Shown here in pieces: positions 10,181-45,253 of a stretch of DNA of 45,253 nt. The notes under the pieces are model-generated. The model worked only from the letters and a program-made list of their open reading frames with translations, made no database searches and was not told the DNA's origin. This DNA is from a virus, in IMG/VR virus record IMGVR_UViG_3300038466_000102, positions 1-45,253 of that record, one strand, 5' to 3'. Numbering within the stretch: the stretch's first letter is position 1; every line of letters starts with the position of its first letter. A program made the position numbers and the translations under genes.

Positions 10181-11026
10181 ATGTCCATATTTTTTAACAA
10201 TAACCAAAGACCAATTAATCCGGAGAGGACTTTATCTGAAAAGGTAAAGGATTTTGTTCGGCCTAAGCTTCTTTCCCCGCTTCAGGGTGAGCCAGACACT
10301 TTTTTAAACCGGGTTAAGGAATTGTTCAAACCCAACCTCAAATCACCTGCCACTGAAACTGATGAGGAAACGCTTCTTAATCGGCCGAAACCGGCACCCT
10401 CGCCATCAACGACACCAGTGGTTGCGCCGGTTTTTGCCCAGGAGAAAACTCCCGCAATCGCACCTATGCCTATACCTGCTGTTTCGCCTATGCCTACATT
10501 TACCCGGCCATTTGAGAAAGAGGCCACCGAGGTTTGGGGGGACAAAGTTGAGGAGTTTTATCGGGTAATGAAAGAGGGCGAAAATGCTAAACTTCAACCG
10601 GTTATAGATGTTCCTAACCGGACTATCAAAGATCCGGTTACTGGCAAGAAAGTATGGAACAATGCGCCTGATGCCCCGATTGACCAGATTTATAACCCGG
10701 ATACGGATAAAATGGAAGACTCCATTGACAGGGGGCTGGCCCGGATAAATAACGGTACTTTTTACTTACTACTTAATAGCTTGGAATACCGGCCGATGAT
10801 GAAAGAGGCGGGAATTACTGATACTAACGATGTCCATAAAGTTGATTTTCAGGTGGCTTGGGATAAAATGAACGATCCGGGCTATAATATAAAGATGTCC
10901 AAAATCATTTACCAGTTCCATGAAAACGAGAACAAAAAGAAAGGGATTAAGAAATCCGGTTGGTCTGGCTGGGTAGCTGCGCCAGAAGATTTGGTCAACT
11001 TGGAGGAATATGTCGCTAATAAGTAG
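10181..11026 (+). CDS. Putative internal virion protein; weak lytic-transglycosylase-like motif (EDSIDRGLARIN)
   Basis: Track ORF, 281 aa. The motif resemblance to SLT E-S...GLMQI is weak. Confidence 0.4.
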   Translation: MSIFFNNNQRPINPERTLSEKVKDFVRPKLLSPLQGEPDTFLNRVKELFKPNLKSPATETDEETLLNRPKPAPSPSTTPVVAPVFAQEKTPAIAPMPIPAVSPMPTFTRPFEKEATEVWGDKVEEFYRVMKEGENAKLQPVIDVPNRTIKDPVTGKKVWNNAPDAPIDQIYNPDTDKMEDSIDRGLARINNGTFYLLLNSLEYRPMMKEAGITDTNDVHKVDFQVAWDKMNDPGYNIKMSKIIYQFHENENKKKGIKKSGWSGWVAAPEDLVNLEEYVANK

Positions 11027-14000
11027 CTTTTTTCAGAAATCAGACGCAATAAGACGCAAGCGCCTGGAGGCGATCCAGCAACAAATCACCTCTAAGCTTT
11101 CTCAGGTTAAATCTAAAGCTGATGTTACAGTGGACACAGTTAAAGACTATTTCACCAGCGGCCAGGTTAAAGAGGACATTAAAAAACAATACTCTCTGGA
11201 AAATATCAAACGGGTATTTGATCCGTTTTCCATGCTTAAGACTGCGGCCAGAACATATTTTTATGATCCGGAGACTAAAAAAGCTTTACCTCAGTCGCTG
11301 TTGCGTAAAGAAAACCGGCCGGACATGACTAAATTAGCCAACTGGAAAAATCTGTCTGAACAAGAAAGAGAACAGGAACTGCAAAAAACCATCGTTCCCA
11401 TGTTTATGCTCAGTGGGGCGCCACAAGGAGTTGTTAATCCTGGCAGCCGAGCCTATAAAAAACTTACGGATGAGGGTTGGATTAGACAAAAACTTGGAAA
11501 GGAATGGGCTTGGGTTAAACCTAAAGGTGGGTTTCAAGGATCGGCTTTACCTAATCAGCCAGCAATTGAAGCACCGACTCCATTGATTACACCACCTGCA
11601 CCTGTAACCCCTCCGACGCCGACTTTAGGAGCCGGTCCACAATTCATTGCAGCAACGCTAGCAGTCCCTCCAGTACCACTTAAGCCAGTCGTACCACCAG
11701 TTGCACCGACGCCGATTGGACCACAACCTATTATTCAAGAACAAAAAATTACCACCCCCCTCGCCACCGAAGCCACCAAGTATAAGAGTACGGAGGTTTG
11801 GTATCATGGCACAAGCCAAAAAAATGCTAAGTCAATTCTTAAAGAAGGTTGGAATCCAACTAAAAGTGACACCCCCAATGAATCACCTTATGCTTTATTT
11901 GCTAGTAAAGAGACTGGAGACGTAAACGATCATTCGGCTGGACTTTATAATCGTGGTGCAATGTTAGAGATAAGACCCAAGCCCAATGCTAATATTAAAG
12001 GTGAAGATTATTGGTATCAAACATTTGGTAAAAGTCATGGGGCGGAAGAGTCTGCTCAAATTGCAAAAAATGCCATAGCTGAAGGCGTTGATATTGTTAA
12101 AGATCCAAGCGGTGAGGTTTACATTTTAAATCCGAAAAGTGTTGATATTAAGATGGTTACAAAAGCCACTCAAGCTAAGGGGGTAACACCTCAACTAGCT
12201 GGCAAGCCGGCAATACCACCAACTGAGACTCATCCATTGATCAATGAATCTTTTGTCAGGTTGGCTGATGAGGCTAATAAAAACACCGATGCTTTGCGCG
12301 GTGGCACTTGGTTTACCAACAAAGGGGGAATTGGTTCTTTACAGTATGCGATAAAGGAAAAGATAATCGGCGGTGGTACGCTTTTTAAAGGCAACCTTAA
12401 TCCTAAAAATCCTCTTGTTGTTAAAGAAGCTCAGTTGGAAGATGGATCGTTAAACGTGATAAACCTGGGGTACGAAAATTACATTAAGCCTAAATATTAT
12501 AAAATTCTTGATCACATGATGGCGACTATTTTGTATCCTGAAAGTGGAGCTGAATTGCCTGATGACCAAATAGACATTCATCTTATGAATGCTTTGGAGG
12601 CAGCGGATATTCCTGAAACCCAGGCCATTAAAGTTTTAAACGTGACCCCTAAAAATAAACTTGACGTGACTGCAGATATGATTATGACTAAGGCTTTAAA
12701 AGAGGAGGGTTACGATGCTTTAATTTTACTAACTGAGGGTGGTCAAAAGCACGTCTTAAATTTTGATACTTCCAAGGCTTTTGAACCGGCACCGCCTAAA
12801 CTGACTATTGCCAAATTAGAAAAGCAGGAACTTGGCGAACATTTTAAAGACTTTATCTCCCAAGCGAAGACCGGAGAAAGTTATACCAGCCGGGTAAATA
12901 AACTTTCCGAGGTGGCGGATAAACCGGAGATCTCTAATGACCGGGTCATGTTGCGGCAACTGCGGACTTTGGTCCGCAAAGAGATTCTTAAATTAACCGG
13001 GTTGGATGCCGGCGGGACCGGTCACTGGAAACAGGACTTTGCCTATCTGCAGATGATTAAAGCCGATCCGGCGGTTGCCGATCAGGTCACGGCTCTGGAA
13101 GAGTTAATCTATAAACTGGATGAAAAGATCGGCGTCAATGTTCAGGCCAAGATCGCTGACTTTTCCGAGGACCTCGGCTTGCCAACCACTGCTGATTATT
13201 ACATTCCTGTCAGAAAGTATTCTACCCGGGGGACTGGCAACCGCGAGTGGATTCAGCAGAACATTCCCCTTGTCTATATGGGCAATAAACGGGGCATGGT
13301 TGGTTATATCCTGGATGTGTTGGGAATTAAACGCGACGACCTCCAGTTTCTTAACTCCCAGGATACGGCTCATTTGCCGTTTACCCAGGTTTATGATCTC
13401 TTTGGCGGGTCCGGCTTGCTGGCCAACCTCTCTACCAAACTTTTCCCGAAAGCCCAGATTACTTATAACGAGTATGATCCACAGGTGGTTAAGGCCATTG
13501 AGACTGTCAAGACCAATCCTCGGCCGGTTACCCGCTTCATCAAAGAGGTAGGAATCTGGTTACAGGACCATCCCGGCGCCGATTGGTTGGCCCATTTCCA
13601 ACTGGTCCATAAAAGCGATCCGATGTTCCGGACGGCGGCCAAACTGATTGAGGCTACCGCTGGCCGGACCGGGGAAGTAACCGCCCAAAAGATCGCCAAC
13701 ATGGTTAAAGCCGTCCCTAACTACGCTAAGGCTTTTAAAGACGTCCAGACGACCAATGAAGATGCCTTTGCCATTATGGACCGGTTGATTGCCAACCCGC
13801 CTTCTAAAGGATCAACTTTAGTCTATATTGACCCGCCTTACTGGGGTTCAGCTGGCTATGCTCAGGGAGCGGAGATGATGCGCTCGTCCGGGTTTATGAA
13901 GGTGTTGGATTACATCGGCAAACTGGATAAAGTCGGCGTTAAGGTGATCGCTTTCAACAACGACCCCGAAGTCCAGGCACCTAAGGCCGGCCTGGAAGAA

Positions 14001-16973
14001 ATCCACCTTAACAATATCATGGGCAAGATCAATCAACTGTCCGAACAGGGGGTAACTGTCATCCGGGGGATCAAGCCGATCGGGGCGCCGGATAGGCGGG
14101 AGATTATGCTGACTAACCTGGACTATGGTAAAAAGACCAACCGTTTGCTTAACCAGAAGTGGGTCATGGAGGCAATTGAGAAACTTCATGCCCAGCCGGC
14201 GGCCGAGATGTCCAAGTCTTTCCTATCATTACTGCGGTCCATTCGTGGTAGCTCAGAGTTTGCCCCGGGAACACAGCGGATTTCCCCCAACCAAATCCGC
14301 ATGATCCGCACTCTTAAGAATCGTCTGCGGATTAAGAACCGGGAGATGCTGCCGATCCTAGACGAGTTGTTGGGTGATACCTCTTTTGCCAAAATGACCA
14401 AAGAGGATGGCGAGAAGATGATCGCCTGGCTGCAGCCACAGAACTACCGAATTATTGAAAAGCAGGTGGACCTGACCAAAGACCGGCTGGGCAAAGCCAG
14501 GCTGCAGGCGGTTATTGGCGAGCCATCAGTGGCTGTTAATGAAGAATTGGAAAAGAAGTTTAACTTGATTGATGTCATGAACCGGACAGCCGGCGATATT
14601 GAGAACATTACTAAAATGGTGGGCAACCTGCCGAAGATGGAAGCACCTAAATGGAATAATCTGCGCCGGGCTTTACTGCTACCGGCTAAAGCTTTGTCTG
14701 AAGACCTGGCTACAAAAATTCTCGGCATTAAGGGATCGTTCCATACTCCTCTACGGGCGATCATCAACATCAGCACCAAGTTCAAAAACCGGATGCATCT
14801 CAATCTATCCCAATTAGCTAAAGATTTATCTGAGGAAGAACGAAAAGCGGTCGCCTTTATCCAAGGCGGGGCCGAGAAAGAGTTTAAGGGGACAATCTCG
14901 CCCAAGGCAAGACAAACTGCTAATTATTTACAGGAAGTTTTCCGGGCAAACCTGGCTATTGTTAACCGGTTGCGCCAAGCAGTTAACCAACCGATCGTGC
15001 CAGAAAGAAATCCTTACATCTCTTATATTTTAAACCAGGACATTTTAGAGGCGGCCCATTTAGGCGATAGGGTAAAGTTTTGGGAACAGCGGGTAAAAAC
15101 TCCCAAAGACTTTGCTGCCGGTTTGTTTACCCAGGACCTTAACAGAATCTTTAAGATTTGGTCCGAGTCCTCAGCCAACTGGCTCAAGAAAAATCTTTAT
15201 CAGGCTCTCTTGGCTGATAAATTTGAGGAGATTTACAAGGTGTCTGATGCCGCTTCCATGTATGCCCGGACAATCATGGAGATGGATATTTATAATATGA
15301 TGGGGGATTTTGAGCGCTCGTTCCGGGTAATCGGCCAGGCCATCAATGACTCTGTCGGCAAGATTTATCCTAAGCGAATTCCGGTTAATGAAGAACTGGC
15401 TAAATCTTTGCTCAATACTACCTTTGGCCAGGAACTGATAGATTCCATTAAACACGGTTATCTTTATGTGCCACGCTTCCAACTGCCTAATGTTGGTGAA
15501 GTCTTTCATAAAGTGTTTTATCCGGCCAAGTTAGCCTGGAATTTCGGCTTTGCTGTTCTTAACCGGCAGCAACCCTGGGCAGCCACACCGTTTGTCGGAG
15601 TGATTAATAAACTTAAAGGACGGCTTAAACTTTACGGAGTGATGATGCCTTGGAATGGCAAGGCGCGAGACCGCTATATTTCCATGCTGGAATCTTCCGG
15701 TTACCAATTTGGCCGAATGATGTACGGTGAGCAATTTCCTACGGCTAAAAGCACGCTAGGAGTCTTTGTGGATCGGTCCATTAACTTTTTAAATGATGTT
15801 ACCGAGCTGGCCAACCGGATGGAGAATGCCATTGATGCTGAATATGTGCTGGCCAATTTGGAAAAAAAGGCTGGTATGACCTTGGAACGGCGTGACAAAG
15901 AGAAAATTGCCGGCCAATTCTCGGCTTTTATTAACTTTATCTCCGGCAAGAGCTATTCGCCGGTGGCCCAGCGCAATGCGATCGGCCGAGTGCTTTATAC
16001 TTTCCAGCAGTATCCGATCTACCAACTGAATGTATTTCACGAAATGCTCAAGTATGCCCATCAAGACAAAGGGGCGGCTGACTTTTGGAAGTTAATGAAT
16101 GACGAAGGTGGTGCTTCTGAAAAAGCTTACGAGGCTTTTCAAAAACTGCCGGATAAGAGTAAATCCCGCTACTTTGCCATTTTATTGGCAATTGCCATCC
16201 CGGTAGCCACCATTTATTCCATGTCCCGGTCCTGGTCAGTGGCTGCGCGGGCCTTGCCCGGAATGCCCAGAGTTGCCATGAATAATATTCTTAAAGCTTT
16301 ATTCGCTTGGGTTGATGATCCGAGCGATGACAATAGAGATGTTTTGGCGACAGAGATTAAAGGTTTCTTCCGGGTAACTGTAACTCAACGGGTAAATGAT
16401 GCTTTTGATGTGATGAAGACCGGCATCCTCCAAACTACCACCACCGGCCGACCGTTGTTTGTCCAAAAGACGATTGACAATGCGGTCCGGATGTTTGTCT
16501 TTGGCCGGTCCATTTTACCAGAGTACGAGAAACGCTACCCCAGCATTCTTTCCAAGATATTCGGCGGTCAAACAGAGGCCGGACAAGTTAAGAAACTGCA
16601 GAAGTCCCGGTTAAAACAGCAACAGACTGACACGGAAAACGCAGTGGAGTTTATGAAACGACTGGAGACCAGTAAAACTATTGAAGAGAAAAAGGCTTTG
16701 CTTAAAGAGTTTGCCGAGGCCGGCAAGTTTAATACTCAGATGAAAGATAAATTAAAACAGTACCTAACTGAAAAAACCACTGGCACCGGCGGTTTGGAAC
16801 GATCAATCATCGGTCTGAATGATGCTGATCAGGCTCAGTTTGTTTTAGACAATCTTAACAAGGCTAAAACTGTTGAGGCGAAGCAAGCTTTGCTGGCCGA
16901 CTATGCCCAGCGAGGAGTCCTAACTGCCAATGTAATTGCCGAAATGAAAAAACTATTGCTTAATAAAAAATGA
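11010..16973 (+). CDS. Giant polyvalent virion protein (1987 aa) with Dam-like N6-adenine DNA methyltransferase domain and a possible ART/PARP-like motif
   Basis: Track ORF; GGAGGA upstream. Contains DLFGGSG (13401-13415) and IDPPY (DPPY at 13830-13841) in the order motif I then motif IV. Contains VWYHGTSQKNAKSILKEGW (YHGT at 11802-11813). Hydrophobic segments lie in the C-terminal third. Confidence 0.7.
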   Translation: MSLISSFFQKSDAIRRKRLEAIQQQITSKLSQVKSKADVTVDTVKDYFTSGQVKEDIKKQYSLENIKRVFDPFSMLKTAARTYFYDPETKKALPQSLLRKENRPDMTKLANWKNLSEQEREQELQKTIVPMFMLSGAPQGVVNPGSRAYKKLTDEGWIRQKLGKEWAWVKPKGGFQGSALPNQPAIEAPTPLITPPAPVTPPTPTLGAGPQFIAATLAVPPVPLKPVVPPVAPTPIGPQPIIQEQKITTPLATEATKYKSTEVWYHGTSQKNAKSILKEGWNPTKSDTPNESPYALFASKETGDVNDHSAGLYNRGAMLEIRPKPNANIKGEDYWYQTFGKSHGAEESAQIAKNAIAEGVDIVKDPSGEVYILNPKSVDIKMVTKATQAKGVTPQLAGKPAIPPTETHPLINESFVRLADEANKNTDALRGGTWFTNKGGIGSLQYAIKEKIIGGGTLFKGNLNPKNPLVVKEAQLEDGSLNVINLGYENYIKPKYYKILDHMMATILYPESGAELPDDQIDIHLMNALEAADIPETQAIKVLNVTPKNKLDVTADMIMTKALKEEGYDALILLTEGGQKHVLNFDTSKAFEPAPPKLTIAKLEKQELGEHFKDFISQAKTGESYTSRVNKLSEVADKPEISNDRVMLRQLRTLVRKEILKLTGLDAGGTGHWKQDFAYLQMIKADPAVADQVTALEELIYKLDEKIGVNVQAKIADFSEDLGLPTTADYYIPVRKYSTRGTGNREWIQQNIPLVYMGNKRGMVGYILDVLGIKRDDLQFLNSQDTAHLPFTQVYDLFGGSGLLANLSTKLFPKAQITYNEYDPQVVKAIETVKTNPRPVTRFIKEVGIWLQDHPGADWLAHFQLVHKSDPMFRTAAKLIEATAGRTGEVTAQKIANMVKAVPNYAKAFKDVQTTNEDAFAIMDRLIANPPSKGSTLVYIDPPYWGSAGYAQGAEMMRSSGFMKVLDYIGKLDKVGVKVIAFNNDPEVQAPKAGLEEIHLNNIMGKINQLSEQGVTVIRGIKPIGAPDRREIMLTNLDYGKKTNRLLNQKWVMEAIEKLHAQPAAEMSKSFLSLLRSIRGSSEFAPGTQRISPNQIRMIRTLKNRLRIKNREMLPILDELLGDTSFAKMTKEDGEKMIAWLQPQNYRIIEKQVDLTKDRLGKARLQAVIGEPSVAVNEELEKKFNLIDVMNRTAGDIENITKMVGNLPKMEAPKWNNLRRALLLPAKALSEDLATKILGIKGSFHTPLRAIINISTKFKNRMHLNLSQLAKDLSEEERKAVAFIQGGAEKEFKGTISPKARQTANYLQEVFRANLAIVNRLRQAVNQPIVPERNPYISYILNQDILEAAHLGDRVKFWEQRVKTPKDFAAGLFTQDLNRIFKIWSESSANWLKKNLYQALLADKFEEIYKVSDAASMYARTIMEMDIYNMMGDFERSFRVIGQAINDSVGKIYPKRIPVNEELAKSLLNTTFGQELIDSIKHGYLYVPRFQLPNVGEVFHKVFYPAKLAWNFGFAVLNRQQPWAATPFVGVINKLKGRLKLYGVMMPWNGKARDRYISMLESSGYQFGRMMYGEQFPTAKSTLGVFVDRSINFLNDVTELANRMENAIDAEYVLANLEKKAGMTLERRDKEKIAGQFSAFINFISGKSYSPVAQRNAIGRVLYTFQQYPIYQLNVFHEMLKYAHQDKGAADFWKLMNDEGGASEKAYEAFQKLPDKSKSRYFAILLAIAIPVATIYSMSRSWSVAARALPGMPRVAMNNILKALFAWVDDPSDDNRDVLATEIKGFFRVTVTQRVNDAFDVMKTGILQTTTTGRPLFVQKTIDNAVRMFVFGRSILPEYEKRYPSILSKIFGGQTEAGQVKKLQKSRLKQQQTDTENAVEFMKRLETSKTIEEKKALLKEFAEAGKFNTQMKDKLKQYLTEKTTGTGGLERSIIGLNDADQAQFVLDNLNKAKTVEAKQALLADYAQRGVLTANVIAEMKKLLLNKK

Positions 16974-17298: not shown

Positions 17299-17523
17299 AT
17301 GCCAAAACAAACCAGTTATGATTTACTAAAAGAAGTCTATACTATTGTCAATAGGCTTGAAGATAAAGTGGACAAAAGAGTAGGTTTAACGGAGGGAAGG
17401 TTGGATAAGATTGAAGGTAAAGTAGATAACTTATTAGGTAAAATCGGCATCGGTGTGATGGTGGTTTCGGCAGTTATCTCCAGCGGAATAGCTTTTCTTT
17501 TTAGCTTTTTAAAGAAAGATTAA
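17299..17523 (+). CDS. Small membrane-anchored protein in the lysis cassette (holin-like)
   Basis: Track ORF, 74 aa. It has a C-terminal hydrophobic helix (IGIGVMVVSAVISSGIAFLFSFL) and abuts the endolysin gene. Confidence 0.55.
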   Translation: MPKQTSYDLLKEVYTIVNRLEDKVDKRVGLTEGRLDKIEGKVDNLLGKIGIGVMVVSAVISSGIAFLFSFLKKD

Positions 17524-18461
17524 TGATTAATTTACAACAATTGATAGATAAGTATAATGGCAAGCCTTGCGAGGTGGCCGGTTCGGCTGACGCTAAAAAC
17601 CAGTGTGTGGATTTAGCCAATGCCTATATCAGAGATGTCTGGGGTTTGCCGATAGTAGAGTGGACCAATGCAGTGGACTTTCCCGAAAAGATCACCAACT
17701 GTAATTTTATTGCCAATACTCCTGATGGAATGCCCAACCCGGGAGATTTGGCTGTCTTTAAGAAATACGGCTCGCTTTATGGTATAAATGGACATATCGG
17801 GGTAGTGATGGAAGCCACTCTGAATTCAATGAAAATTTTTGGGCAGAATTACCCGACCGGCTCGCTGTGCAAGATAGGCACGCATAATTATCTTGGCTGC
17901 CGCGGCTGGCTGAGAAAGAAAGAAACTATGTTTGATGATGAAATGGTAATTAAAAAGTCAGAGTATAAAAATCTTTTTGAGGGAAACCAGCTTTTCCAGC
18001 AGTTTAAAGACAATGGTTATTCCTCGGTTGCCGATGTCAAAGCAGATATTGCCGCCCGCAATAAAACTATTGAAGAGCAAAAGGCTGAGATTAAGCTTGC
18101 TAACGATGCCGCTACTGAAGATAAAAACTCTTATCAGGCATTACGGGACGCAGTGGCCAAGGCTTTAGGCGTCACTCAGGATGTCAATCAAATCAATGCG
18201 GCCCTGACTAAACTGGAAAAAGACCTGGATGATTATGATACGGTGAAACGCAATCTGGCCACTCTCCAAACGGCTTTTGATACTAGTGTCGGAAACTCCA
18301 CCGCCACGATTAAAGCCTACGAGGCCTTAATGAAGAATGCCTACAGCCCAGCGGAGTTGGCTAAAATACTCGCCAATAAACGGTCCGAGCTGATTTGGAA
18401 ATTGATGGTTAGTTTGATTAAAGACATTAAAATTTCTTTACCTAAATTAAAGAGGGGGTGA
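17523..18461 (+). CDS. CHAP-domain endolysin with long helical C-terminal region
   Basis: Track ORF. Has the Cys motif KNQCVDLANAY and the downstream His motif NGHIGVV typical of CHAP amidase/peptidases. Confidence 0.8.
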   Translation: MINLQQLIDKYNGKPCEVAGSADAKNQCVDLANAYIRDVWGLPIVEWTNAVDFPEKITNCNFIANTPDGMPNPGDLAVFKKYGSLYGINGHIGVVMEATLNSMKIFGQNYPTGSLCKIGTHNYLGCRGWLRKKETMFDDEMVIKKSEYKNLFEGNQLFQQFKDNGYSSVADVKADIAARNKTIEEQKAEIKLANDAATEDKNSYQALRDAVAKALGVTQDVNQINAALTKLEKDLDDYDTVKRNLATLQTAFDTSVGNSTATIKAYEALMKNAYSPAELAKILANKRSELIWKLMVSLIKDIKISLPKLKRG

Positions 18462-18745: not shown

Positions 18746-18775
18746 TTGACATCGTCAGGTTAAAGTAGGTAAATT
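18746..18775 (+). promoter_or_regulatory. Sigma70-like promoter (TTGACA-18 nt-TAAATT)
   Basis: TTGACA at 18746-18751 and TAAATT at 18770-18775, intergenic. Confidence 0.5.
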
Positions 18776-18780
18776 AAGTA

Positions 18781-18809
18781 TTGACATTAAATGGAGTGTT
18801 GCTGATAAT
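18781..18809 (+). promoter_or_regulatory. Sigma70-like promoter (TTGACA-17 nt-GATAAT)
   Basis: TTGACA at 18781-18786 and GATAAT at 18804-18809. Confidence 0.6.
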
Positions 18810-19450: not shown

Positions 19451-19702
19451 ATGTCAGAGTTTGAATGCTATAACAAAGACTGTAAAAAAATGGTTGACTA
19501 CCAAGCAACCGGTAGTTTCTTTTGCTGTCAGGAATGCAAGGCTGCGTATAATAAAAATCGGCGGCCGGCTAATTCAGCGGAGCGGAAACTGACGGTTCCG
19601 GAGATGCAGGAGAAATTAAAAGCGATCGCGGCGGCACTGCGGGAGCGCCGGTTAAACTATCAGCCGAGTATTTTTCCGGCGCAGACTCAAATTGCCGCTT
19701 GA
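19451..19702 (+). CDS. Small Zn-ribbon protein (TRASH/FCS-like CxxC...FCCxxC)
   Basis: Track ORF; contains CYNKDCKK...FFCCQECKAAY. Confidence 0.6.
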   Translation: MSEFECYNKDCKKMVDYQATGSFFCCQECKAAYNKNRRPANSAERKLTVPEMQEKLKAIAAALRERRLNYQPSIFPAQTQIAA

Positions 19703-19727
19703 CAAGCATTTAATTATTGGTTAATAT
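19699..19727 (+). promoter_or_regulatory. Sigma70-like promoter (TTGACA-17 nt-TAATAT)
   Basis: TTGACA at 19699-19704 and TAATAT at 19722-19727, upstream of AGGAGG and ATG 19754. Confidence 0.6.
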
Positions 19728-20835: not shown

Positions 20836-21098
20836 AGCGTACCAGTAAGTGGCAGATGTTTTTTAAACGGATGCCTTTGGGGAAAATATTTGAGATACGG
20901 ATTGCCCAGCATATTGCTAAATGCGGCTGTGAGCCTAAGGTAATCTTTATTGGCCCAGATGATTTTGCTCTTTTCAGGGCCAGGGCGGCAGTAGGAAAAG
21001 AACAGTTTGTTTTGGGTTTGGGTAATCCACCCAAGCTATTTTGGCGGGGCATTGAGTTAATTAAATTGGAGGAAAAGCATGAAGTTCCAACCAGCTAA
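20832..21098 (+). CDS. Hypothetical protein (88 aa)
   Basis: Track ORF 20802..21098. The ATG at 20832 forms an ATGA overlap with the upstream stop. Confidence 0.55.
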   Translation: MKRTSKWQMFFKRMPLGKIFEIRIAQHIAKCGCEPKVIFIGPDDFALFRARAAVGKEQFVLGLGNPPKLFWRGIELIKLEEKHEVPTS

Positions 21099-21378
21099 AA
21101 ACATCGTTGTTCTTAAACCTTTAAAGACGGATGATTTGAAGGCAATGGGGATTGTCCGCAACTCTATCATTGAGGCGGCCGTGTCCAAACAGCCGCAACT
21201 CGGCCAAGTGGTCCAAGTCGGCGATATTAAGAAAGACAGCGAGCTGCCGTTCAGAGAGCTTAAGTCCGGCGATGTGGTTGCTTACCGGGAGTTCGGCGAC
21301 AATAAATTTATGCTGGGCATGGAAGAGGTGGTTTTTGTGGTGTTTGAGGATATATTAAGTATTTTGAAGAAGGAGTAA
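21079..21378 (+). CDS. groS: Co-chaperonin GroES/Cpn10 homologue
   Basis: Track ORF, 99 aa; GGAGGA upstream. Its length and pattern (KP..N.VV.KP...; GQVV.VGD; SGDVV.Y; E.DIL..L) match Cpn10, and it sits 0.4 kb upstream of GroEL. Confidence 0.75.
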   Translation: MKFQPAKNIVVLKPLKTDDLKAMGIVRNSIIEAAVSKQPQLGQVVQVGDIKKDSELPFRELKSGDVVAYREFGDNKFMLGMEEVVFVVFEDILSILKKE

Positions 21379-21381
21379 TTT

Positions 21382-21750
21382 ATGCGTAAAGGTTTTACAA
21401 GCATTGAAGTTTTAGTTATTGGTTTCTTATTTTTAATCTTTGTTTTTATACTAAGTTTTCCTTTATGGATTAGACTTCAGTCACTTGGCCGGGGAACACA
21501 TACCGGTTTTGTGACGGCCGTTGATCAGCGTGGTTACATTTGGAGGAATTACGAGGTTTATTTTAAGACTGATAATTCTTCTTCTCAGGAGGATGTTTAT
21601 TGTGTTCACCGGGTCAAGCAGGATTTAGTGGATGTTCTGCGCGGTTTTGCCATGACTGGCAAGAAAGTAACTATCATTTATCAAGGTGTCCGGGGAATAG
21701 GCTTTGGCCTATGTAGCCGTACTGAGATAAAAGGCTGGTCAATTAATTAA
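21382..21750 (+). CDS. Prepilin-like protein (class III signal peptide MRKGFTSIEVLV...)
   Basis: Track ORF, 122 aa; AAGGAG upstream. The N-terminus has basic residues, then G|FTSIE, then about 20 hydrophobic residues, which is the type IV prepilin cleavage/methylation motif. Confidence 0.55.
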   Translation: MRKGFTSIEVLVIGFLFLIFVFILSFPLWIRLQSLGRGTHTGFVTAVDQRGYIWRNYEVYFKTDNSSSQEDVYCVHRVKQDLVDVLRGFAMTGKKVTIIYQGVRGIGFGLCSRTEIKGWSIN

Positions 21751-21762
21751 ATAAGGAGTTTT

Positions 21763-23352
21763 ATGCGCGTCTATCATCGCCCGATTTGTTTTAAAGAAGA
21801 TGCCCGGACTAAATTGTTTAAGGGTGTTCAGATATTATCCGATGCCGTCACCACGACTCTCGGTCCCAAAGGCCGGAACGTGGCGGTCCTGCGGCAGTGG
21901 GGTACTCCGATTGTGGTTCATGACGGCGTGACTGTGGCCCGGGAGGTGGACTCGGACGATGTGTTTGAGAAGATCGGCATCATGCTGGTCAAGGAAGCGG
22001 CTCAGAAGACTAACGATGAGGCCGGGGACGGCACGACTACTGCGACCCTTTTGGCTTATGAGATTGTCCGGCAGGGGCTGGAGTTGATCAAGACCGGCTA
22101 TAATCCGATGGTGCTACGGAATGAAATTTATGCGGCTTTGCCGAAACTTCTGGAAAAGTTAAAGTCTATTTCCACTCCGGTTAAAGAGAACAAGGAGATT
22201 GCCCAGGTGGCCTTTATCAGCGCGGCCGATGAGTCAATCGGTAATTTAGTGGCCGGCGCGGTAACTAAGATGGGTGAAGACGGCTTGGTTACGGTTGACG
22301 AGGGGGAGACGATGGAGACGATTGTGGAATATACCAAGGGGATGGAGATCAAGCGCGGCTACTTTTCGCCTTACCTGATCACTAACGAGCAGCGGATGGA
22401 AGCGGTTATCATTAATCCGGTCATTGCCATCATCAATAAAAAGTTAACTCTTGCCAATGAAATGGTCCCGATCCTGTCGGAGATGGCCAAGGTTAGTAAA
22501 GACATTGTGATTATTGCTGATGACATCTCCGGCGATGCCTTGGCGACAATGATTCAGAATAAGCTTAAAGGGAACATTAATGCCGTAGGTATCTCTGCCC
22601 CGACTATGGACCGGGAAGCCGAACTGGCGGATATTGCCGTGGTGGTTGGTGGCAAGGTGATGTCCGAAAAGACCGGTTTTGACTTAAACACTTTGGAGCA
22701 ATCGCTTGGCCATGCCAAGAAGTTTGTGGCGGCCAGGGATAAATCCACGATCATTGACGGCGCCGGCACTAAAGAGCAGATCGCCGAGCGGGCCAAAGCC
22801 ATTAAGGCTCAAATGAAGCACGATCATAACAAATTTGAGAAGGAAAAATACGAGACGCGCCTGGCCCGGCTGACTACCGGTGTGGCCGTGATCAAGGTCG
22901 GTGCTAAAACTGAGATTGATATGCGGGAGAAAGTGGAGCGGGTTAAAGACGCTGTAGGCGCTGCTGAAGCGGCCAGGGAAGAGGGGATCATCCCCGGAGG
23001 CGGAACTGCCTTTATCAAGCTCAAAGCGGCCCTCAAAGGCACCACAGCGGGCGAGAAGCTGCTTTTAAATGTGCTGGACAGTCCGGTCCGGAAGCTGATG
23101 CAAAATGCCGGCGAGAGCGAAAATAAGATCAAGGAAGTAATTGATTCAATCCCTGACGGTCCGGCCAGTCTTGGTTACGAAATAAACCAGGGCAAAATTA
23201 TGGACCTTAAAGAAAAAGGGGTGATTGATCCGACCAAGGTGGTTCGGTTGGCCTTAGAGAATGCTGTCGGTGTCGGCACGTCTATATTAACTACTGACTG
23301 CTTGATCGGCCTGGTGGTTAAAGAGCAGGGTGGAGGCAAGACTTATGAGTGA
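21763..23352 (+). CDS. groL: Chaperonin GroEL/Cpn60 homologue (lacks the GGM tail)
   Basis: Track ORF, 529 aa. It contains TLGPKGRNV, DEAGDGTTTATLLA, GVAVIKVGA.TE, and GGG followed by GVIDPTKV, collinear with bacterial GroEL. Confidence 0.93.
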   Translation: MRVYHRPICFKEDARTKLFKGVQILSDAVTTTLGPKGRNVAVLRQWGTPIVVHDGVTVAREVDSDDVFEKIGIMLVKEAAQKTNDEAGDGTTTATLLAYEIVRQGLELIKTGYNPMVLRNEIYAALPKLLEKLKSISTPVKENKEIAQVAFISAADESIGNLVAGAVTKMGEDGLVTVDEGETMETIVEYTKGMEIKRGYFSPYLITNEQRMEAVIINPVIAIINKKLTLANEMVPILSEMAKVSKDIVIIADDISGDALATMIQNKLKGNINAVGISAPTMDREAELADIAVVVGGKVMSEKTGFDLNTLEQSLGHAKKFVAARDKSTIIDGAGTKEQIAERAKAIKAQMKHDHNKFEKEKYETRLARLTTGVAVIKVGAKTEIDMREKVERVKDAVGAAEAAREEGIIPGGGTAFIKLKAALKGTTAGEKLLLNVLDSPVRKLMQNAGESENKIKEVIDSIPDGPASLGYEINQGKIMDLKEKGVIDPTKVVRLALENAVGVGTSILTTDCLIGLVVKEQGGGKTYE

Positions 23353-26103: not shown

Positions 26104-26259
26104 ATGATCTTAAAAATTGAGATTGAGATGACTCATTTAGCCGATGCCAGTGTCCGGTTGCAGCGGATTGCTAATCAGTTGGAGCATGGTTTTGTCAAAG
26201 GGTACGGGTGGGAGTTAGCAGATGAAGAGGAGGAGAATGATAAAAAGCCTAATGAGTGA
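26104..26259 (+). CDS. Hypothetical small acidic protein (51 aa)
   Basis: Hand translation with no internal stop; no clear SD. Confidence 0.3.
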   Translation: MILKIEIEMTHLADASVRLQRIANQLEHGFVKGYGWELADEEEENDKKPNE

Positions 26260-26614
26260 GAAACAACTACAGCGGGTGATCGTGGAAACCCTTAATTACT
26301 CCGGCGCCCTATGCTGGATTACCAATGCCGGCATGACTAAAACTTCTTACCGGTTGAAGAAAGGCAAGAGGAAAGGGCAATTGAGGGAGTACATGATTTG
26401 CTTTGGCCCGGCTGGGATGAGCGATATTATCGGGGTTTACAAAGGGAAGTTTCTGGCTATAGAGGTCAAGTTACCAGAAAGACGCAAGAATGTGACCGAG
26501 ATTCAGAATAATTTTATTGAGAATATCCGGGATCATGGCGGTTTGGCCGGCATGGCGACGAGCGTGGAAGAGGCATTGGAAATTATCAATATTGTTAAAG
26601 GAACAGAGGTATGA
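26252..26614 (+). CDS. VRR-NUC family nuclease
   Basis: Track ORF 26222..26614. Contains GMSDIIGVYKGKFLAIEVK....E.Q..F...I...GG.A, the PD-(D/E)xK VRR-NUC pattern. Confidence 0.7.
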   Translation: MSEKQLQRVIVETLNYSGALCWITNAGMTKTSYRLKKGKRKGQLREYMICFGPAGMSDIIGVYKGKFLAIEVKLPERRKNVTEIQNNFIENIRDHGGLAGMATSVEEALEIINIVKGTEV

Positions 26615-32698: not shown

Positions 32699-32856
32699 AG
32701 AAATATAGAGTGATGGTTAAGCAGATTTATGTTTACGATGGTGTTCCGGCTAAGACTAAAGCCAAGGCAGTCCAAAAAGTGCTGGATATGGATTGGATTG
32801 GTCATGATGAATGTGAAGAGCAATTGGAAACCTCAGCGGAAATAGAGGAGCTATGA
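32695..32856 (+). CDS. Hypothetical small protein (53 aa)
   Basis: In-frame ATG within track ORF 32665..32856; ATGA overlap; GAGGAGG upstream. Confidence 0.5.
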   Translation: MKKYRVMVKQIYVYDGVPAKTKAKAVQKVLDMDWIGHDECEEQLETSAEIEEL

Positions 32857-33086
32857 TTACAATGCCGATTGTTTCTTTGGTGTCCAAGCTGATCCTGCAC
32901 CGGTCCCGGGCAGATTACCGGCTTTATTATTTCTTGCAGACCGAGGCTGGCCGGAGGATGTGCCATGAGTCGTTTGACGATGCTTACGCGGCGATCTATC
33001 GCTGGCGCGTGCTGTCGTTCCAGGCTAATGGCTTGTTGCACGGCGAGCCGACTATTAAAAGGACGGAGGCTTATGACGCTGGGTGA
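32853..33086 (+). CDS. Hypothetical protein (77 aa)
   Basis: Track ORF; GAGGAG upstream; ATGA overlap. Confidence 0.55.
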   Translation: MITMPIVSLVSKLILHRSRADYRLYYFLQTEAGRRMCHESFDDAYAAIYRWRVLSFQANGLLHGEPTIKRTEAYDAG

Positions 33087-33168
33087 CTTTGGGTTTGTTC
33101 TGCTTTGCTGGTCCATGGTGTGGCTGGTGATCTGCGGCATTACTTTTGTGGTGGAGCGCCGGCGGTAG
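33073..33168 (+). CDS. Very small membrane protein (31 aa)
   Basis: In-frame ATG in track ORF 32965..33168, preceded by GGAGG; sequence MTLGDFGFVLLCWSMVWLVICGITFVVERRR. Confidence 0.4.
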   Translation: MTLGDFGFVLLCWSMVWLVICGITFVVERRR

Positions 33169-33193
33169 CTTGTCCGGCGCTATCGGGTTTTTT
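33155..33193 (+). terminator. Intrinsic-terminator-like hairpin plus T-run
   Basis: AGCGCCGG (33155-33162) pairs with CCGGCGCT (33174-33181); ATCGGG then TTTTTT follows. Confidence 0.55.
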
Positions 33194-33228
33194 GGGTCTT
33201 GACATCCGGTTTTGGCTATGCCATCAAT
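33179..33228 (+). promoter_or_regulatory. Third, diverged copy of the promoter-like module (GCTATCGGGT-N6-GGTCTTGACA-T-CCGGTTTTGGCTA)
   Basis: It has the same 26-nt frame as the 52-nt repeats, with TTGACA at 33199-33204. The -10 is unclear. Confidence 0.45.
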
Positions 33229-33271
33229 ACAGACGTTATCAGTTATTCAACAGAGGGGGGGTGAGGATTTT

Positions 33272-33445
33272 ATGGCTTATGATTCTTTGATTACGGCGAC
33301 CGTTCGTATCCCCGGCACTGATGCCGGCGCTAAGGGTAAGGATGCGGCGGCCGATGTCCGGGCTGTGTTGCAGGTGCTGGTTGACTTGCATTATTGTGAG
33401 GCTGGGGATATTGATGTGACTATTAATACACCGGCGACTGCCTAG
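33272..33445 (+). CDS. Hypothetical small protein (57 aa)
   Basis: In-frame ATG in track ORF 33212..33445, preceded by GTGAGGA. Confidence 0.5.
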   Translation: MAYDSLITATVRIPGTDAGAKGKDAAADVRAVLQVLVDLHYCEAGDIDVTINTPATA

Positions 33446-33716
33446 TCGTTTGGGTCGGGGGACCATTGTGGTTTCCCGGCCGGACCGATCAGCGATTTTT
33501 GTCAGGTTTTCCACCTCCCAGAATATCACTTCTACCTGGTCGGTTCTTTTTGGTGGCTGTTTGGGTGCTCGGGTTTCGGCCGGTCACTATGTGTTTGGTC
33601 GTGCCGATCCGCTGTCACGCGTTGACAGGCGAGGTTGGTTTACCCGAGCATTACCCGTATTGGCTTTGCTCGCCGGCTTTTTTGGGTTTTCCGGTATGTG
33701 TTTATCTGGGTGTTTT
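33446..33716 (+). other. A-depleted, G+T-rich noncoding segment 1 (candidate structured RNA or cis element)
   Basis: About 28 A in 271 nt by hand count. A 12-bp hairpin at 33453-33481 has three G.U pairs that work only on the + strand RNA. GGCGAG/CTCGCC plus GGCTTTTTT lies at about 33629-33684. No SD-preceded ORF is present. Confidence 0.5.
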
Positions 33717-33768
33717 GCTATCGGGTAATCTTGGTCTTGACAGGCTGTTTCCGGTTATGGTTAACTGG
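33717..33768 (+). repeat. 52-nt repeat copy 2 carrying the promoter-like module
   Basis: Identical to 32333-32384; TTGACA at 33737-33742. Confidence 0.85.
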
Positions 33769-33797
33769 GGTAGTTATTAATTTTAGGAGGAGGGTTT

Positions 33798-34076
33798 ATG
33801 TCTGCTACTACTCAAAAGCCCAACCGGGATCCGCTGGTGGCTTGTTTGTCGCTTATTATTCAGGCCCATGAGTCGTTGGGTCGCTATTATGATGAGGCGG
33901 CTAAGGCCGGTTTATCCGGTGATCGGTTGGTCACTCTGACTAAAGGATTTATTGCCCTTGAGTTGGCTTCTTCCGGGCTTCGGTCGTTGCCTGACATTGA
34001 CGATTTGGTGTCGGCTCGCAGTCCGATGGTTGCTGAGCCTGGCCTTCGCGGATCAGTGAAACGGAGGTGGAATTAA
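33798..34076 (+). CDS. Hypothetical protein (92 aa)
   Basis: Track ORF; AGGAGGAGGG upstream. Confidence 0.65.
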   Translation: MSATTQKPNRDPLVACLSLIIQAHESLGRYYDEAAKAGLSGDRLVTLTKGFIALELASSGLRSLPDIDDLVSARSPMVAEPGLRGSVKRRWN

Positions 34077-34077
34077 T

Positions 34078-34179
34078 ATGGGTTACGAACATTATGGGTT
34101 TGTGCTTAAGTGGGACGATTTGCCGGAAATTCAGGAAATCCGGTCGTTCTTGGCTGGCCCGATTAAGGGGGTGAAATAA
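34078..34179 (+). CDS. Hypothetical small protein (33 aa)
   Basis: Hand translation MGYEHYGFVLKWDDLPEIQEIRSFLAGPIKGVK; GGAGGTGG upstream. Confidence 0.4.
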   Translation: MGYEHYGFVLKWDDLPEIQEIRSFLAGPIKGVK

Positions 34180-34181
34180 TT

Positions 34182-34412
34182 ATGGTTGACTACGAATTTT
34201 ACGGCGACTCCTCCATCCTCGGCTTGTCCGTGGACGGGTCTGCCGAGGTGTTTATTGATCTGGACGACGTGCGGAACGTTTCCCGGGCGGTTGACGATGA
34301 CGAGGTTAATCCGTCTATTCCGGTGGCCGTGTCGCCGGAGGATGTGGGCGGTTTGTTTGGAGCGCATGGATGTGCCGAGCAATGTCCGCGGCTTGAGGAG
34401 GAATTGGAGTAG
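34182..34412 (+). CDS. Highly acidic small protein (76 aa; 19 D/E versus 3 K/R)
   Basis: Track ORF; GGGGGTG upstream. Residues were counted by hand. Confidence 0.65.
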   Translation: MVDYEFYGDSSILGLSVDGSAEVFIDLDDVRNVSRAVDDDEVNPSIPVAVSPEDVGGLFGAHGCAEQCPRLEEELE

Positions 34413-34422
34413 CTGTTCTCTT

Positions 34423-34455
34423 GCCCGGTCACTCGTTTGGGTGGCCGGGCTTTTT
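34423..34455 (+). terminator. Intrinsic terminator (10-bp stem plus TTTTT)
   Basis: GCCCGGTCAC (34423-34432) pairs with GTGGCCGGGC (34441-34450), including one G.U, around an 8-nt loop. TTTTT follows at 34451-34455. Confidence 0.65.
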
Positions 34456-34800
34456 GATTTGTCCCTTGAGGTGGCGTTTACTTCTGTCGCCCCCGGGCCG
34501 GCGCTGGGCAGTTTTGTTCTGCTTGTTTTATTGCCGGTTTCACTAATTATAGGCTCGTCGCATAAGATATATTGTGCGACACTCCAGGGGTAGCACTTCT
34601 ACCTCTGTTCGCCCTTGCCTGTTGCTCTGCTTCTGTATCTGTTAATCCCAGGCTATACTATGTGCCTGGGCTTGCTGATCGTGCGTTAAGCGCTGCTACG
34701 CGCAGGCGCTAAATGGCTGTTTTGGCACACAAGGCTTGTTTAGCTTGTTTCTTGCTAACTATAGGGGTATTTGCTGTTGTTGTGTGTTTGTCGTCAGCGC
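34456..34800 (+). other. A-depleted, G+T-rich noncoding segment 2 with several hairpins and GCTTGTTT repeats
   Basis: Hairpins are CCCAGG/CCTGGG (about 34647-34670), GTCGCA/TGCGAC (about 34556-34579) and AGCGCTGC/GCAGgGCGCT (about 34688-34710). GCTTGTTT occurs at 34521, 34734 and 34743. No SD-preceded ORF is present. Confidence 0.5.
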
Positions 34801-34804
34801 GGCC

Positions 34805-34823
34805 GGGAGGGGGGGGTGGGGGG
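34805..34823 (+). other. G-tract GGGAGGGGGGGGTGGGGGG (G-quadruplex-capable)
   Basis: Read directly: G3-A-G8-T-G6 on the + strand, in noncoding sequence. Confidence 0.8.
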
Positions 34824-34963
34824 ACGAAAGAGTCTCTCCGAGTTTTAAGGTTCTTCTTTCCTAGACCGGCCTAGAATTTTTTTGAAAAGTTTTGGATCCT
34901 CTTTTGGCCTATAATAGGGGTCCCAATTTTTAAATTTTTTAGGAGAAAGTTTTAAGTTGGGGC

Positions 34964-34993
34964 TTGACTTAATAAATCGTTAAGTGGTATTCT
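34964..34993 (+). promoter_or_regulatory. Promoter (TTGACT-18 nt-TGgTATTCT) containing AATCGTTAAG
   Basis: TTGACT at 34964-34969, TG at 34985-34986, TATTCT at 34988-34993. The ATG at 35002 is 8 nt after the -10. Confidence 0.55.
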
Positions 34994-35001
34994 TGGGGTA
35001 T

Positions 35002-35172
35002 ATGCCTCGTAAAGTAATTAATCATTGTGCCTACTGCCAGAAGCAGGTGGACCGTAATGTTTTCTGCAGGAACTCCCACCGGGTGATGTTTTTCCTTAAG
35101 AAGAAAAAGCAGGAGGAGAAAATGGCGGCAGCGGTTCTAAGGAAGGCGCTTGCTTCTAAACCTAATGTCTAA
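35002..35172 (+). CDS. Small Zn-ribbon protein (TRASH/FCS-like) immediately upstream of terL
   Basis: In-frame ATG in track ORF 34984..35172. Contains CAYCQKQV...VFCRNSH and a basic tail. It overlaps the terL start. Confidence 0.55.
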   Translation: MPRKVINHCAYCQKQVDRNVFCRNSHRVMFFLKKKKQEEKMAAAVLRKALASKPNV

Positions 35173-39562: not shown

Positions 39563-39592
39563 TTGACAAAATTAGACCGTTCGGAGTATTAT
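39563..39592 (+). promoter_or_regulatory. Sigma70-like promoter (TTGACA-18 nt-TATTAT) for the capsid gene
   Basis: TTGACA at 39563-39568 and TATTAT at 39587-39592, intergenic. Confidence 0.6.
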
Positions 39593-39658
39593 TGTTGTAA
39601 CTATCGTAGTGAGGTCATAAACCCTTTTATTAAATATTTGATAGTAAAGGGGTTTAAT

Positions 39659-44678: not shown

Positions 44679-45253
44679 ATGAAGTTAGATATTACTCCCA
44701 ACACACCATACGATGTAGGATTGCTTACTCCCACCGACCTCAAAATCTCTACTGCCTCAAAGGGTGGGGTGTTACGGAGTATTGATGGGGCGACAGGGGA
44801 TGTGGCAAGGACGACAACGGGTCAGATTGAAGATGCAAAATATGGATGGACGGCTTATCAAATCGCTACTGCTTGGAGTGCAGAATTTGATACTGCGGTT
44901 ACAAGAACTGGCTTAAAGACACTTAAACTATCAACAACCGATGCAACAGGAAAAATTGTTGCTTATAATATAGATAATAATTTTGAGACAGGTTATATAC
45001 TAAAATTTGTTCCCATTAAAGCAAGCACCTCATATACTCTTTCTTGTTATGTAAAAACCAATAATTGTGCTGCTAATTCAGCATTCCTGACATTTTTTGA
45101 ATATACTCAAGCTGCTCAAGTTGCAAATACTAAAACAAACAAGCTTTCAGGAACTAATGATTGGACTTTGTGTACTGTAACTATAACTACATTAGCCACG
45201 ACTAAGTTTCTTTTAATTGAATTAAATAATTCTGTCGCTGGCAATATCTCAGA
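44679..45253 (+). CDS. Tail fibre / receptor-binding protein, 5' part (continues at base 100 after the 99-nt overlap; CBM4/9-like jelly-roll)
   Basis: Hand translation MKLDITPNTPYD... runs to the window end with no stop. The segment ...TSYTLSCYVKTNN...NDWTLCTVTITT...LLIELNN..AGNISDAWFD fits a carbohydrate-binding-module pattern. Confidence 0.7.
   Translation, partial: MKLDITPNTPYDVGLLTPTDLKISTASKGGVLRSIDGATGDVARTTTGQIEDAKYGWTAYQIATAWSAEFDTAVTRTGLKTLKLSTTDATGKIVAYNIDNNFETGYILKFVPIKASTSYTLSCYVKTNNCAANSAFLTFFEYTQAAQVANTKTNKLSGTNDWTLCTVTITTLATTKFLLIELNNSVAGNIS
45155..45253. repeat. Terminal overlap, right copy (identical to 1-99)
   Basis: 99/99 identity with the left end. Confidence 0.97.

Follow-up and report, generated by a model that had tools for sequence, protein, structure and literature searches.

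A phage groES-groEL operon with an apparently inserted gene for a predicted membrane-tethered OB-fold protein in its spacer

What is a small gene with a prepilin-like start doing between the groES and groEL genes of a phage? The question is raised by IMG/VR virus record IMGVR_UViG_3300038466_000102, of which positions 1 to 45,253, here called the window, were analysed as a whole. A preliminary description of this DNA, made from the sequence alone, had noted three consecutive genes, each preceded by a Shine-Dalgarno site, for a GroES co-chaperonin, a prepilin-like protein and a GroEL chaperonin. The product of the middle gene, 122 amino acids (aa) long, carries the working name X. Our comparisons indicate that the chaperonin pair has long belonged to the phage lineage, that X is a foreign gene that landed in the spacer between its two members, and that its product is a membrane-anchored protein with a predicted oligonucleotide/oligosaccharide-binding (OB) fold rather than a pilin.

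Layout, identity and origin of the chaperonin operon

The three genes are present as described, on the + strand (Table 1), with their Shine-Dalgarno sites 4 to 6 nucleotides (nt) upstream of the starts. They are tightly packed, with 3 nt between groES and X and 12 nt between X and groEL. No promoter-like or terminator-like site was found by consensus scan on the + strand between 20360 and 23262, and the nearest good promoter-like site lies at 19699-19727. Because of the tight spacing and the absence of an internal promoter-like or terminator-like site, groES, X and groEL are likely to be co-transcribed. Two promoter-like sites, at 18746-18809 and 19699-19727, precede the chaperonin-containing block just downstream of the endolysin gene; TTGACA-17-GATAAT (11 of 12 matches) and TTGACA-17-TAATAT are near-consensus sites of the sigma-70 type.

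Both chaperonin components can be assigned by profile. The product of groES scores 34.8 bits against Pfam PF00166 (Cpn10; gathering score 21.1) over residues 2-95 and matches phrog_3188, "co-chaperonin GroES". It can be aligned with E. coli GroES along its entire length, keeps the G-I-V tripeptide of the mobile loop and is 30-82% identical to the GroES proteins of related phages. The product of groEL matches PF00118 (Cpn60_TCP1; E 8.5e-53, 180.2 bits, cut-off 34.3) and phrog_5725 ("chaperonin groEL"; E 2.4e-123), and it passes NCBIfam subfamily models such as NF000592 (543.9 bits, cut-off 397). GroES falls below the cut-off of every NCBIfam GroES model and GroEL lies narrowly under that of the strict equivalog TIGR02348 (532.9 against 582.1 bits); because of these missed cut-offs the two proteins are judged from their sequences to be divergent, yet intact. 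The ATP-site residues D54, GDGTT 88-92, D396, G412/G414 and D489 of GroEL are invariant in an alignment of 34 sequences of its clade, and correspond to D52, D87 and its loop, D398, the GGG motif and D495 of the E. coli protein. The stretches DEAGDGTTTATLLA and GGG are present, as is an apical GYFSPYL, a GroES/substrate site of the YxSxYF type, and the protein ends in KEQGGGKTYE, with no GGM repeats. The first and third genes are the Cpn10 and Cpn60 homologues that the preliminary description had recognized, and the catalytic and ring-contact motifs of this phage-encoded pair are intact.

A search of 5.8 billion proteins returned about 100 GroEL clusters at 50-85% identity, all of them on contigs of at most 45 kb and many on contigs of 37-45 kb, similar in length to the present genome. 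The first match on a large contig (259 kb, cellular) is 47% identical; its neighbourhood comprises guaA, groES-groEL with a 46-nt spacer and no intervening gene, an M23 peptidase gene and ABC transporter genes. Identity to GroEL in deposited phage genome records is at most 42%. Since the clade is confined to contigs of at most 45 kb and the nearest cellular GroEL is this distant, the groES-groEL operon is, on sequence comparison, not a recent copy from a host but an old resident of the phage lineage.

Other phages are known to encode components of a group I chaperonin. T4 gp31 is a GroES analogue that uses the host GroEL. Pseudomonas phage EL gp146 is a GroEL homologue that works without a co-chaperonin (PMC7185714). 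Unlike T4 and EL, the phage studied here encodes both partners and would need neither the host GroEL nor a mechanism free of co-chaperonin. Its own GroES and GroEL would most likely form an ATP-driven folding cage for phage proteins, among which the major head protein is the classical candidate for a client. Carrying both genes had been called uncommon, which does not agree with published counts: of the 337 viral contigs with GroEL in one virome data set, 133 carried GroES as well, 63 of them in the order GroES>GroEL (PMC5649160), and isolated Flavobacterium phages are annotated with both. As in the viral operons of uncultured aquatic phages (Marine et al. 2017, PMC5649160) and in Flavobacterium phage vB_FspM_immuto, Cpn10 here lies upstream of Cpn60, in canonical order, and as in the known viral operons the proteins diverge from cellular ones and clades are defined by gene arrangement. 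The operon of the window differs from them in that its GroEL belongs to a separate clade, on contigs of at most 45 kb from groundwater, wastewater and other metagenomes, and in that the groES-groEL spacer appears to serve this lineage as a cargo site. Phage GroES-GroEL operons have already been described, and the present pair is a further example, from a large clade missing among deposited phage records.

Cargo of the groES-groEL spacer

The spacer was surveyed in 17 distinct phage contigs of the GroEL clade that have both genes, out of the approximately 100 clusters known. In nine of them groES abuts or overlaps groEL, and in eight the spacer holds cargo, of seven unrelated kinds (Table 1). 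X is the cargo of the window and of a sister phage. Two relatives hold candidates that resemble anti-defence sponges, one Tad2-like and the other like the hairpin of Acb2/Tad1, and an 82-aa open reading frame (ORF) lies in one of four further inserts. Three of these inserts, 0.8-1.4 kb long, hold several genes each, among them genes for small proteins of the membrane or for secretion and for one of zinc-finger/HNH-like type; the products of the inserts include small transmembrane proteins, a 231-aa secreted protein rich in Pro and Thr, and a Cys-rich zinc-finger/HNH-like protein of 195 aa.

X stands apart from the genes that flank it. The G+C content at third codon positions (GC3) is 0.34 in X, against 0.59 in groES and 0.615 in groEL, and because of this gap X is taken to be a foreign, inserted gene. 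Among 24 X-bearing phage loci, X adjoins chaperonin genes only in the window's lineage, and no neighbouring gene family is common to more than three of these loci. The sister phage, from groundwater, has the same groES-X-groEL order (X 75% and GroEL 85% identical), and on one IMG/VR contig X and groESL occupy opposite strands, separated by about 9 kb. X is best described, from these comparisons, as a stand-alone, horizontally mobile module of a single gene with its own Shine-Dalgarno site. A place for X in a lysis cassette was also considered and rejected, as the endolysin genes lie 2-6 kb away, at variable distance, in all loci.

Most simply, the spacer between groES and groEL can be read as an insertion hotspot and X as one of many unrelated genes that landed there, because eight of the 17 relatives hold seven different cargoes between conserved flanks and the GC3 of X is deviant. 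We hold the gene anatomy, together with this view of X as inserted cargo, with considerable confidence. Phage morons and accessory hotspots resemble the spacer in that variable, unrelated cargo occupies one conserved junction and differs in composition from the flanks. Some observations weigh against our overall explanation. Unlike classical morons, X has no detected promoter or terminator; it sits inside the operon and would reuse the transcription of the operon. The Tad2-like and Acb2/Tad1-like matches stay under the Pfam gathering scores, and a single-sequence model of the Tad2-like ORF reaches a predicted local distance difference test score (pLDDT) of only 45.7. A homologue search with this ORF returned only the ORF itself, and PDB sequence searches with the two ORFs gave nothing, or a match to Tad1 at E ~1.

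Two other explanations of the three-gene block were considered. In one, the phage chaperonin has X as its dedicated client or cofactor, and the place of X between the two chaperonin genes would follow from that; the tight packing and probable co-transcription of the genes agree with this, as does the conservation of the arrangement in the sister phage. However, the other X-bearing phage loci examined have no adjacent chaperonin, the related operons either lack a spacer gene (nine of 17) or hold unrelated cargo, the X domain is predicted to be extracytoplasmic whereas GroEL is cytoplasmic, and a cellular homologue of X lies in an envelope gene neighbourhood (see below). The survey of spacers and loci has largely refuted a dedicated client already, and we consider it very improbable. 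X is, as judged from these comparisons, not functionally tied to the chaperonin. The preliminary description had noted a pilin-like gene embedded between the two chaperonin genes; a functional embedding in the operon is at odds with the empty spacers or unrelated genes of most related operons, and the suggested role of a dedicated client conflicts with a domain that lies outside the cytoplasm, as predicted. Across the metagenomic phages surveyed, synteny bears out a resident GroES/GroEL lineage and does not bear out X as part of it, X being found at that spot only in the window's lineage. In the other explanation, which had been named as what would overturn the preliminary description, the block is simply a recent copy of a host operon with the same gene order. 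The order groES>groEL is indeed the canonical cellular one, but the operon with the nearest cellular GroEL has no intervening gene and only 47% identity, the close subfamily of X was not found in 185,579 species-representative genomes, and the GC3 of X is far from that of both neighbours. A recent host copy did not hold up and retains hardly any probability.

Anchor, fold and proposed role of protein X

With X read as inserted cargo, it is of particular interest to ask what its product may be. An AlphaFold2 (AF2) model of X, built with 41 homologues, has a pLDDT of 93.8 and a predicted template modelling score of 0.79. It consists of a helix of 23 residues (7-29), strands b1-b3, a helix at residues 80-92 and strands b4-b5. 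The globular part is, in the model, an OB-fold: five strands form a barrel, and a helix lies between b3 and b4. Its best Foldseek matches in the PDB are AB5 toxin B subunits (PltB, SubB, pertussis toxin) and single-stranded DNA-binding proteins (SSBs), with TM-scores of ~0.5-0.56 and E ~2e-3; against BFVD, Foldseek returned only uncharacterised OB-like viral proteins. In PltB, SubB, pertussis toxin S2-S5 and SSB, as in X, about 100 residues form an OB barrel of five strands, in which a helix separates strand 3 from strand 4. Unlike them, X is predicted to be membrane-tethered; sequence identity is 10-17%, and the likeness rests on the predicted fold.

The X family is uncharacterised and without a match in Pfam, PHROG, NCBIfam, PADLOC or the PDB: scans against the first four gave nothing usable, the X profile gave only noise against PDB sequences, and tblastn of X against 50,697 phage records found no match. 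It comprises 41 close homologues and at least 392 clusters at 50% identity (E<=1e-3). The family signature is H40-T-G ... K62-T-D-N-S-S-S-Q-E-D-x-Y-C74 ... C111, and the conserved residues are G38, H40, G42, T45, K62, S67, Q69, E70, D71, Y73, C74 and C111. C74 is invariant and C111 at least 90% conserved, a cysteine pair that would fit a disulfide. The close, phage-type subfamily has no relative in the species-representative genomes mentioned above. The wider subfamily occurs in nine genomes. Four of them bear the label Patescibacteria (one Adlerbacteria, one Saccharibacteria and two "Patescibacteria group"), three are metagenome-assembled genomes (MAGs) of proteobacteria, and two belong to unnamed bacteria; in one alphaproteobacterial MAG the X homologue adjoins a resolvase fragment. 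Several relatives (P0224, P0251, P0252-P0283) carry C-terminal modules, namely PG_binding_1, DUF4850, repeated NPSDPLG motifs and long regions rich in Ser, Thr and Asn. Because these relatives extend the unit of membrane segment and OB domain in this way, the domain seems in some of them to be the membrane-proximal base of larger surface proteins as well.

The N-terminus of X, quoted in the preliminary description as MRKGFTSIEVLVIGFLFLIFVFIL, fits a class III (prepilin-type) signal by eye: the basic leader MRKG is followed by F-T-S-I-E and a hydrophobic stretch, and the sequence is as quoted. The membrane helix that follows the leader, FTSIEVLVIGFLFLIFVFILSFPLW, reaches a mean Kyte-Doolittle hydropathy of 2.96 in its best 19-residue window, and the pattern G[FMYLIVA][TS]x[LIVM]E matches nowhere else in the six frames of the window. 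In a class III signal, a hydrophilic leader that ends in Gly or Ala precedes about 21 hydrophobic residues that include Glu5, and pilins are defined by an alpha1 helix of about 50 residues (PMC8179133). X has no such alpha1: in the AF2 model its helix comprises residues 7-29 only, a strand follows directly, and the head is an OB barrel instead of the pilin-type antiparallel sheet on alpha1-C. The 50 best of the 601 Foldseek matches in the PDB include no pilin. With the curated prepilin model TIGR02532, X gives no match even at E<=10, and an N-terminal match to ComGD is weak (E 0.15). Among 188 inspected relatives, a prepilin-like N-terminus is present in seven and absent from 96%; one of these relatives, P0295, passes TIGR02532 (32 bits, cut-off 16.3). 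A lipobox is clear in about 16 of the 188 (LLSGC, LLTGC, LSAC and similar; a regular expression flagged 23), and the remainder have a plain hydrophobic or transmembrane anchor. Because the curated model, the structure and the conservation within the family all go against it, X is, as modelled, not a pilin, and the term prepilin-like protein does not suit it. Structure prediction of the 122-aa protein supports the membrane helix and not a pilin-like fold, and the earlier suggestion of a membrane anchor was right. That a prepilin-like N-terminus had been swapped into X was considered as well. In the window copy the first 35-40 codons have a GC3 of 0.17-0.21 against ~0.40 for the rest; the idea was dropped, as the pattern is absent in the sister phage and inconsistent across the family.

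The OB domain appears to lie outside the cytoplasmic membrane, with X exported and anchored. This is suggested by the lipobox variants, which are exported, by a relative fused C-terminally to the peptidoglycan-binding domain PG_binding_1 (E 1.3e-16), by the Ser/Thr/Asn-rich extensions, by the basic N-termini of cellular homologues, as expected of an N-in anchor, by the conserved cysteine pair with its possible disulfide, and by the envelope gene context of one cellular copy. The latter, on a 733-kb contig of an uncultured bacterium (L094 3180-7649), lies within a cluster in the order surface protein (Ice_binding-like and DUF7507), sortase, 89-aa ORF, X homologue, 89-aa ORF and MliC-like lysozyme inhibitor, which points to a wall-associated role for the X family.

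Two alternatives bear on the protein itself. X could be a genuine pseudopilin, cleaved after Gly4 by the host prepilin peptidase, that enters or poisons the type IV pilus or competence machinery and would block twitching, DNA uptake or pilus-dependent superinfection. The manual motif fits, it recurs in the seven relatives far above chance (some are only ~30% identical to X), P0295 passes the curated model, and class III signals are known on non-pilin modules, for example in modular pilins such as S. sanguinis PilB (PMC8179133). Like type IV pilins, pseudopilins and modular pilins, X has a short basic leader with Gly as its last residue, followed by Phe at +1, Glu at +5 and the hydrophobic helix, and there are precedents for a non-pilin module that follows a signal of class III type. 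Unlike modular pilins, however, X lacks any pilin module, its OB domain following the membrane helix directly, and unlike in pilins the type of anchor is interchangeable within the family. X itself goes unreported by TIGR02532, and its short helix, the missing alpha1-C on a sheet and the absence of pilins from the leading structural matches all speak against the pseudopilin. As 181 of the 188 relatives use a plain transmembrane anchor or a lipobox, the function of the family would be independent of filament assembly, and we regard a pseudopilin as unlikely. The second alternative places the OB domain in the cytoplasm (N-out, C-in), where its ligand at the inner membrane face would be nucleic acid or a metal; it might, for instance, tether DNA or a factor of replication or packaging. 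The N-terminus is acidic in many phage-borne members, with Arg or Lys right after the helix, and the positive-inside rule alone would predict a cytoplasmic domain, which counts against an exported X; SSB-type OB-folds are among the structural matches, and the conserved His40, Cys74 and Cys111 could form a metal site. Against these points stand the lipobox variants, which put the domain outside, the PG_binding_1 fusion, the basic N-termini of the cellular members and the cellular copy amid envelope genes. A cytoplasmic domain is, in our view, quite improbable.

For an exported and anchored X, a role at the cell envelope can be outlined. X would use the Shine-Dalgarno site built into the end of groES, presumably being read through from the operon promoter. 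The hydrophobic N-terminal helix would hold the protein at the outer face of the cytoplasmic membrane; in this phage it carries a motif like a class III signal, and cleavage by a prepilin peptidase is possible in this lineage. The helix would present an 85-residue OB-fold domain with the conserved cysteine pair and the invariant KTDxSSSQEDxYC loop, and through this loop the domain may bind part of the envelope, for instance wall glycan, peptidoglycan or a surface machine. Bound X might then alter or mask the envelope of the infected cell, most plausibly excluding superinfecting phages.

Small membrane-anchored or lipoprotein superinfection-exclusion proteins of phages are known, such as lactococcal Sie2009, Streptococcus thermophilus Ltp and T5 Llp. 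Like X, these are products of single accessory genes outside the structural modules and small proteins that a transmembrane helix or a lipid anchor tethers at the outer face of the membrane. The likeness is one of architecture, and X, unlike them, has cellular homologues outside prophages. Because of this analogy, and because the companions of X in the hotspot look like host-interaction genes, we tentatively propose envelope binding and superinfection exclusion as its role. Against it, exclusion is deduced from architecture and analogy, and the Foldseek E-values are weak, establishing a general OB-fold and not glycan binding. Taken as a blend of gene anatomy, inserted cargo and role, our overall explanation is the best we can offer and moderately probable.

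A more far-reaching version is speculative and, on balance, rather doubtful. In it the groES-groEL spacer would be a dedicated landing pad for counter-defence and exclusion genes that ride on the expression of the operon, and would be so throughout a large clade of uncultured phages with genomes of roughly 30-45 kb. As a new factor of exclusion or host takeover, X would act on the envelope and come from a family that has repeatedly swapped its anchor among plain transmembrane, lipobox and class III types; in the lineages with class III anchors, the protein would pass to the prepilin peptidase or the type IV pilus pathway of the host. Two things are modestly new: a putative membrane-tethered OB-fold family common to Patescibacteria-like genomes and presumed phages, with an anchor exchanged among three targeting systems, and the groES-groEL spacer as a candidate accessory-gene hotspot, in which relatives hold the ORFs resembling Tad2 and Acb2/Tad1. 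If the spacer is indeed a hotspot, it would offer a simple genomic handle on new host-interaction genes in phages of uncultured bacteria.

The phage genome and its host

Positions 1-99 of the window are identical to 45155-45253, a terminal direct repeat of 99 bp. This repeat of its two ends marks the window as a complete genome, that of a tailed phage of approximately 45 kb, circularly closed or terminally redundant. Hallmark genes for terminase, portal, major head protein and endolysin are present (Table 1). Scans of the window for tRNAs and against Rfam found no tRNA and no Rfam family.

Table 1. Coordinates of the chaperonin block, protein X, phage hallmark genes and spacer cargoes of related phages
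Feature	Position	Strand	Remark
groES	21079-21378	+	Cpn10 co-chaperonin, 99 aa
X	21382-21750	+	122 aa
groEL	21763-23352	+	Cpn60, 529 aa, without GGM tail
Shine-Dalgarno site GGAGG for groES	21068-21072	+	6 nt before ATG at 21079
Shine-Dalgarno site AAGGAG for X	21370-21375	+	inside last codons of groES
Shine-Dalgarno site AAGGAG for groEL	21753-21758	+	4 nt before ATG at 21763
Promoter-like site TTGACA-17-TAATAT	19699-19727	+	consensus scan; candidate start of chaperonin transcription unit
X residues 1-4 (MRKG)	21382-21393	+	short basic leader ending in Gly; putative prepilin-peptidase cleavage site
X residues 5-29	21394-21468	+	predicted hydrophobic membrane helix; Glu at position 5 after Gly
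X residues 36-122 and stop codon	21487-21750	+	predicted OB-fold domain (AF2 model, Foldseek)
Terminase large subunit	35150-36793		
Portal	37063-39087		
Major head protein	39563-40726		
CHAP endolysin	17523-18461		
Spacer cargo: X	window and sister phage		
Spacer cargo: Tad2-like ORF, 79 aa	L014 3737-3976		Pfam E 2.3e-4, 22.1 bits, cut-off 25
Spacer cargo: Acb2/Tad1-hairpin-like ORF, 68 aa	L013 3711-3917		Pfam E 1.3e-4, 22.5 bits, cut-off 27
Spacer cargo: ORF, 82 aa	in one of the L115, L118, L122, L113 inserts		inserts of 0.25-1.4 kb
Spacer inserts in other relatives	L115 7204-8613; L118 5836-6995; L122 2963-3783; L113 2303-2551		

The phage comes from an uncultured host, and our best guess for that host, still unproven, is a member of the Patescibacteria. 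It is based on the genomes that hold the X subfamily, on the relatives of the phage from groundwater (sister contigs) and wastewater (one related contig), and on a parallel in lectin domains. The assignment is indirect, which weighs against it: no direct link to Patescibacteria, such as a CRISPR spacer or a prophage, was found. Papers on Patescibacteria phages make no mention of chaperonins. The lectin domain, of the concanavalin A-like type, is found in a 1200-aa protein (5138-8740) that is probably a receptor-binding or tail-fibre protein; five genes with lectin domains of this kind are reported from groundwater Patescibacteriota phages (PMC12911398).

Upstream of the terminase gene, about 2.3 kb (32800-35100) hold short overlapping ORFs and no long ORF. 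The G+C content of this region is raised to 0.515 and T greatly exceeds A (AT skew -0.34); it contains no Rfam family, no notable tandem or inverted repeat and no similarity to deposited phages. Amid the presumed tail and structural genes lies an ORF of 1987 aa (11010-16973), in which residues 887-987 form a short DNA-methyltransferase-like segment that matches phrog_56 and phrog_1996 and has no Pfam match; the ORF is reminiscent of large virion-associated anti-restriction proteins such as P1 DarB. In the early region, a VRR-NUC nuclease (E 2.7e-7) is encoded at 26222-26614, and its copy in the sister phage L006 is 73% identical.

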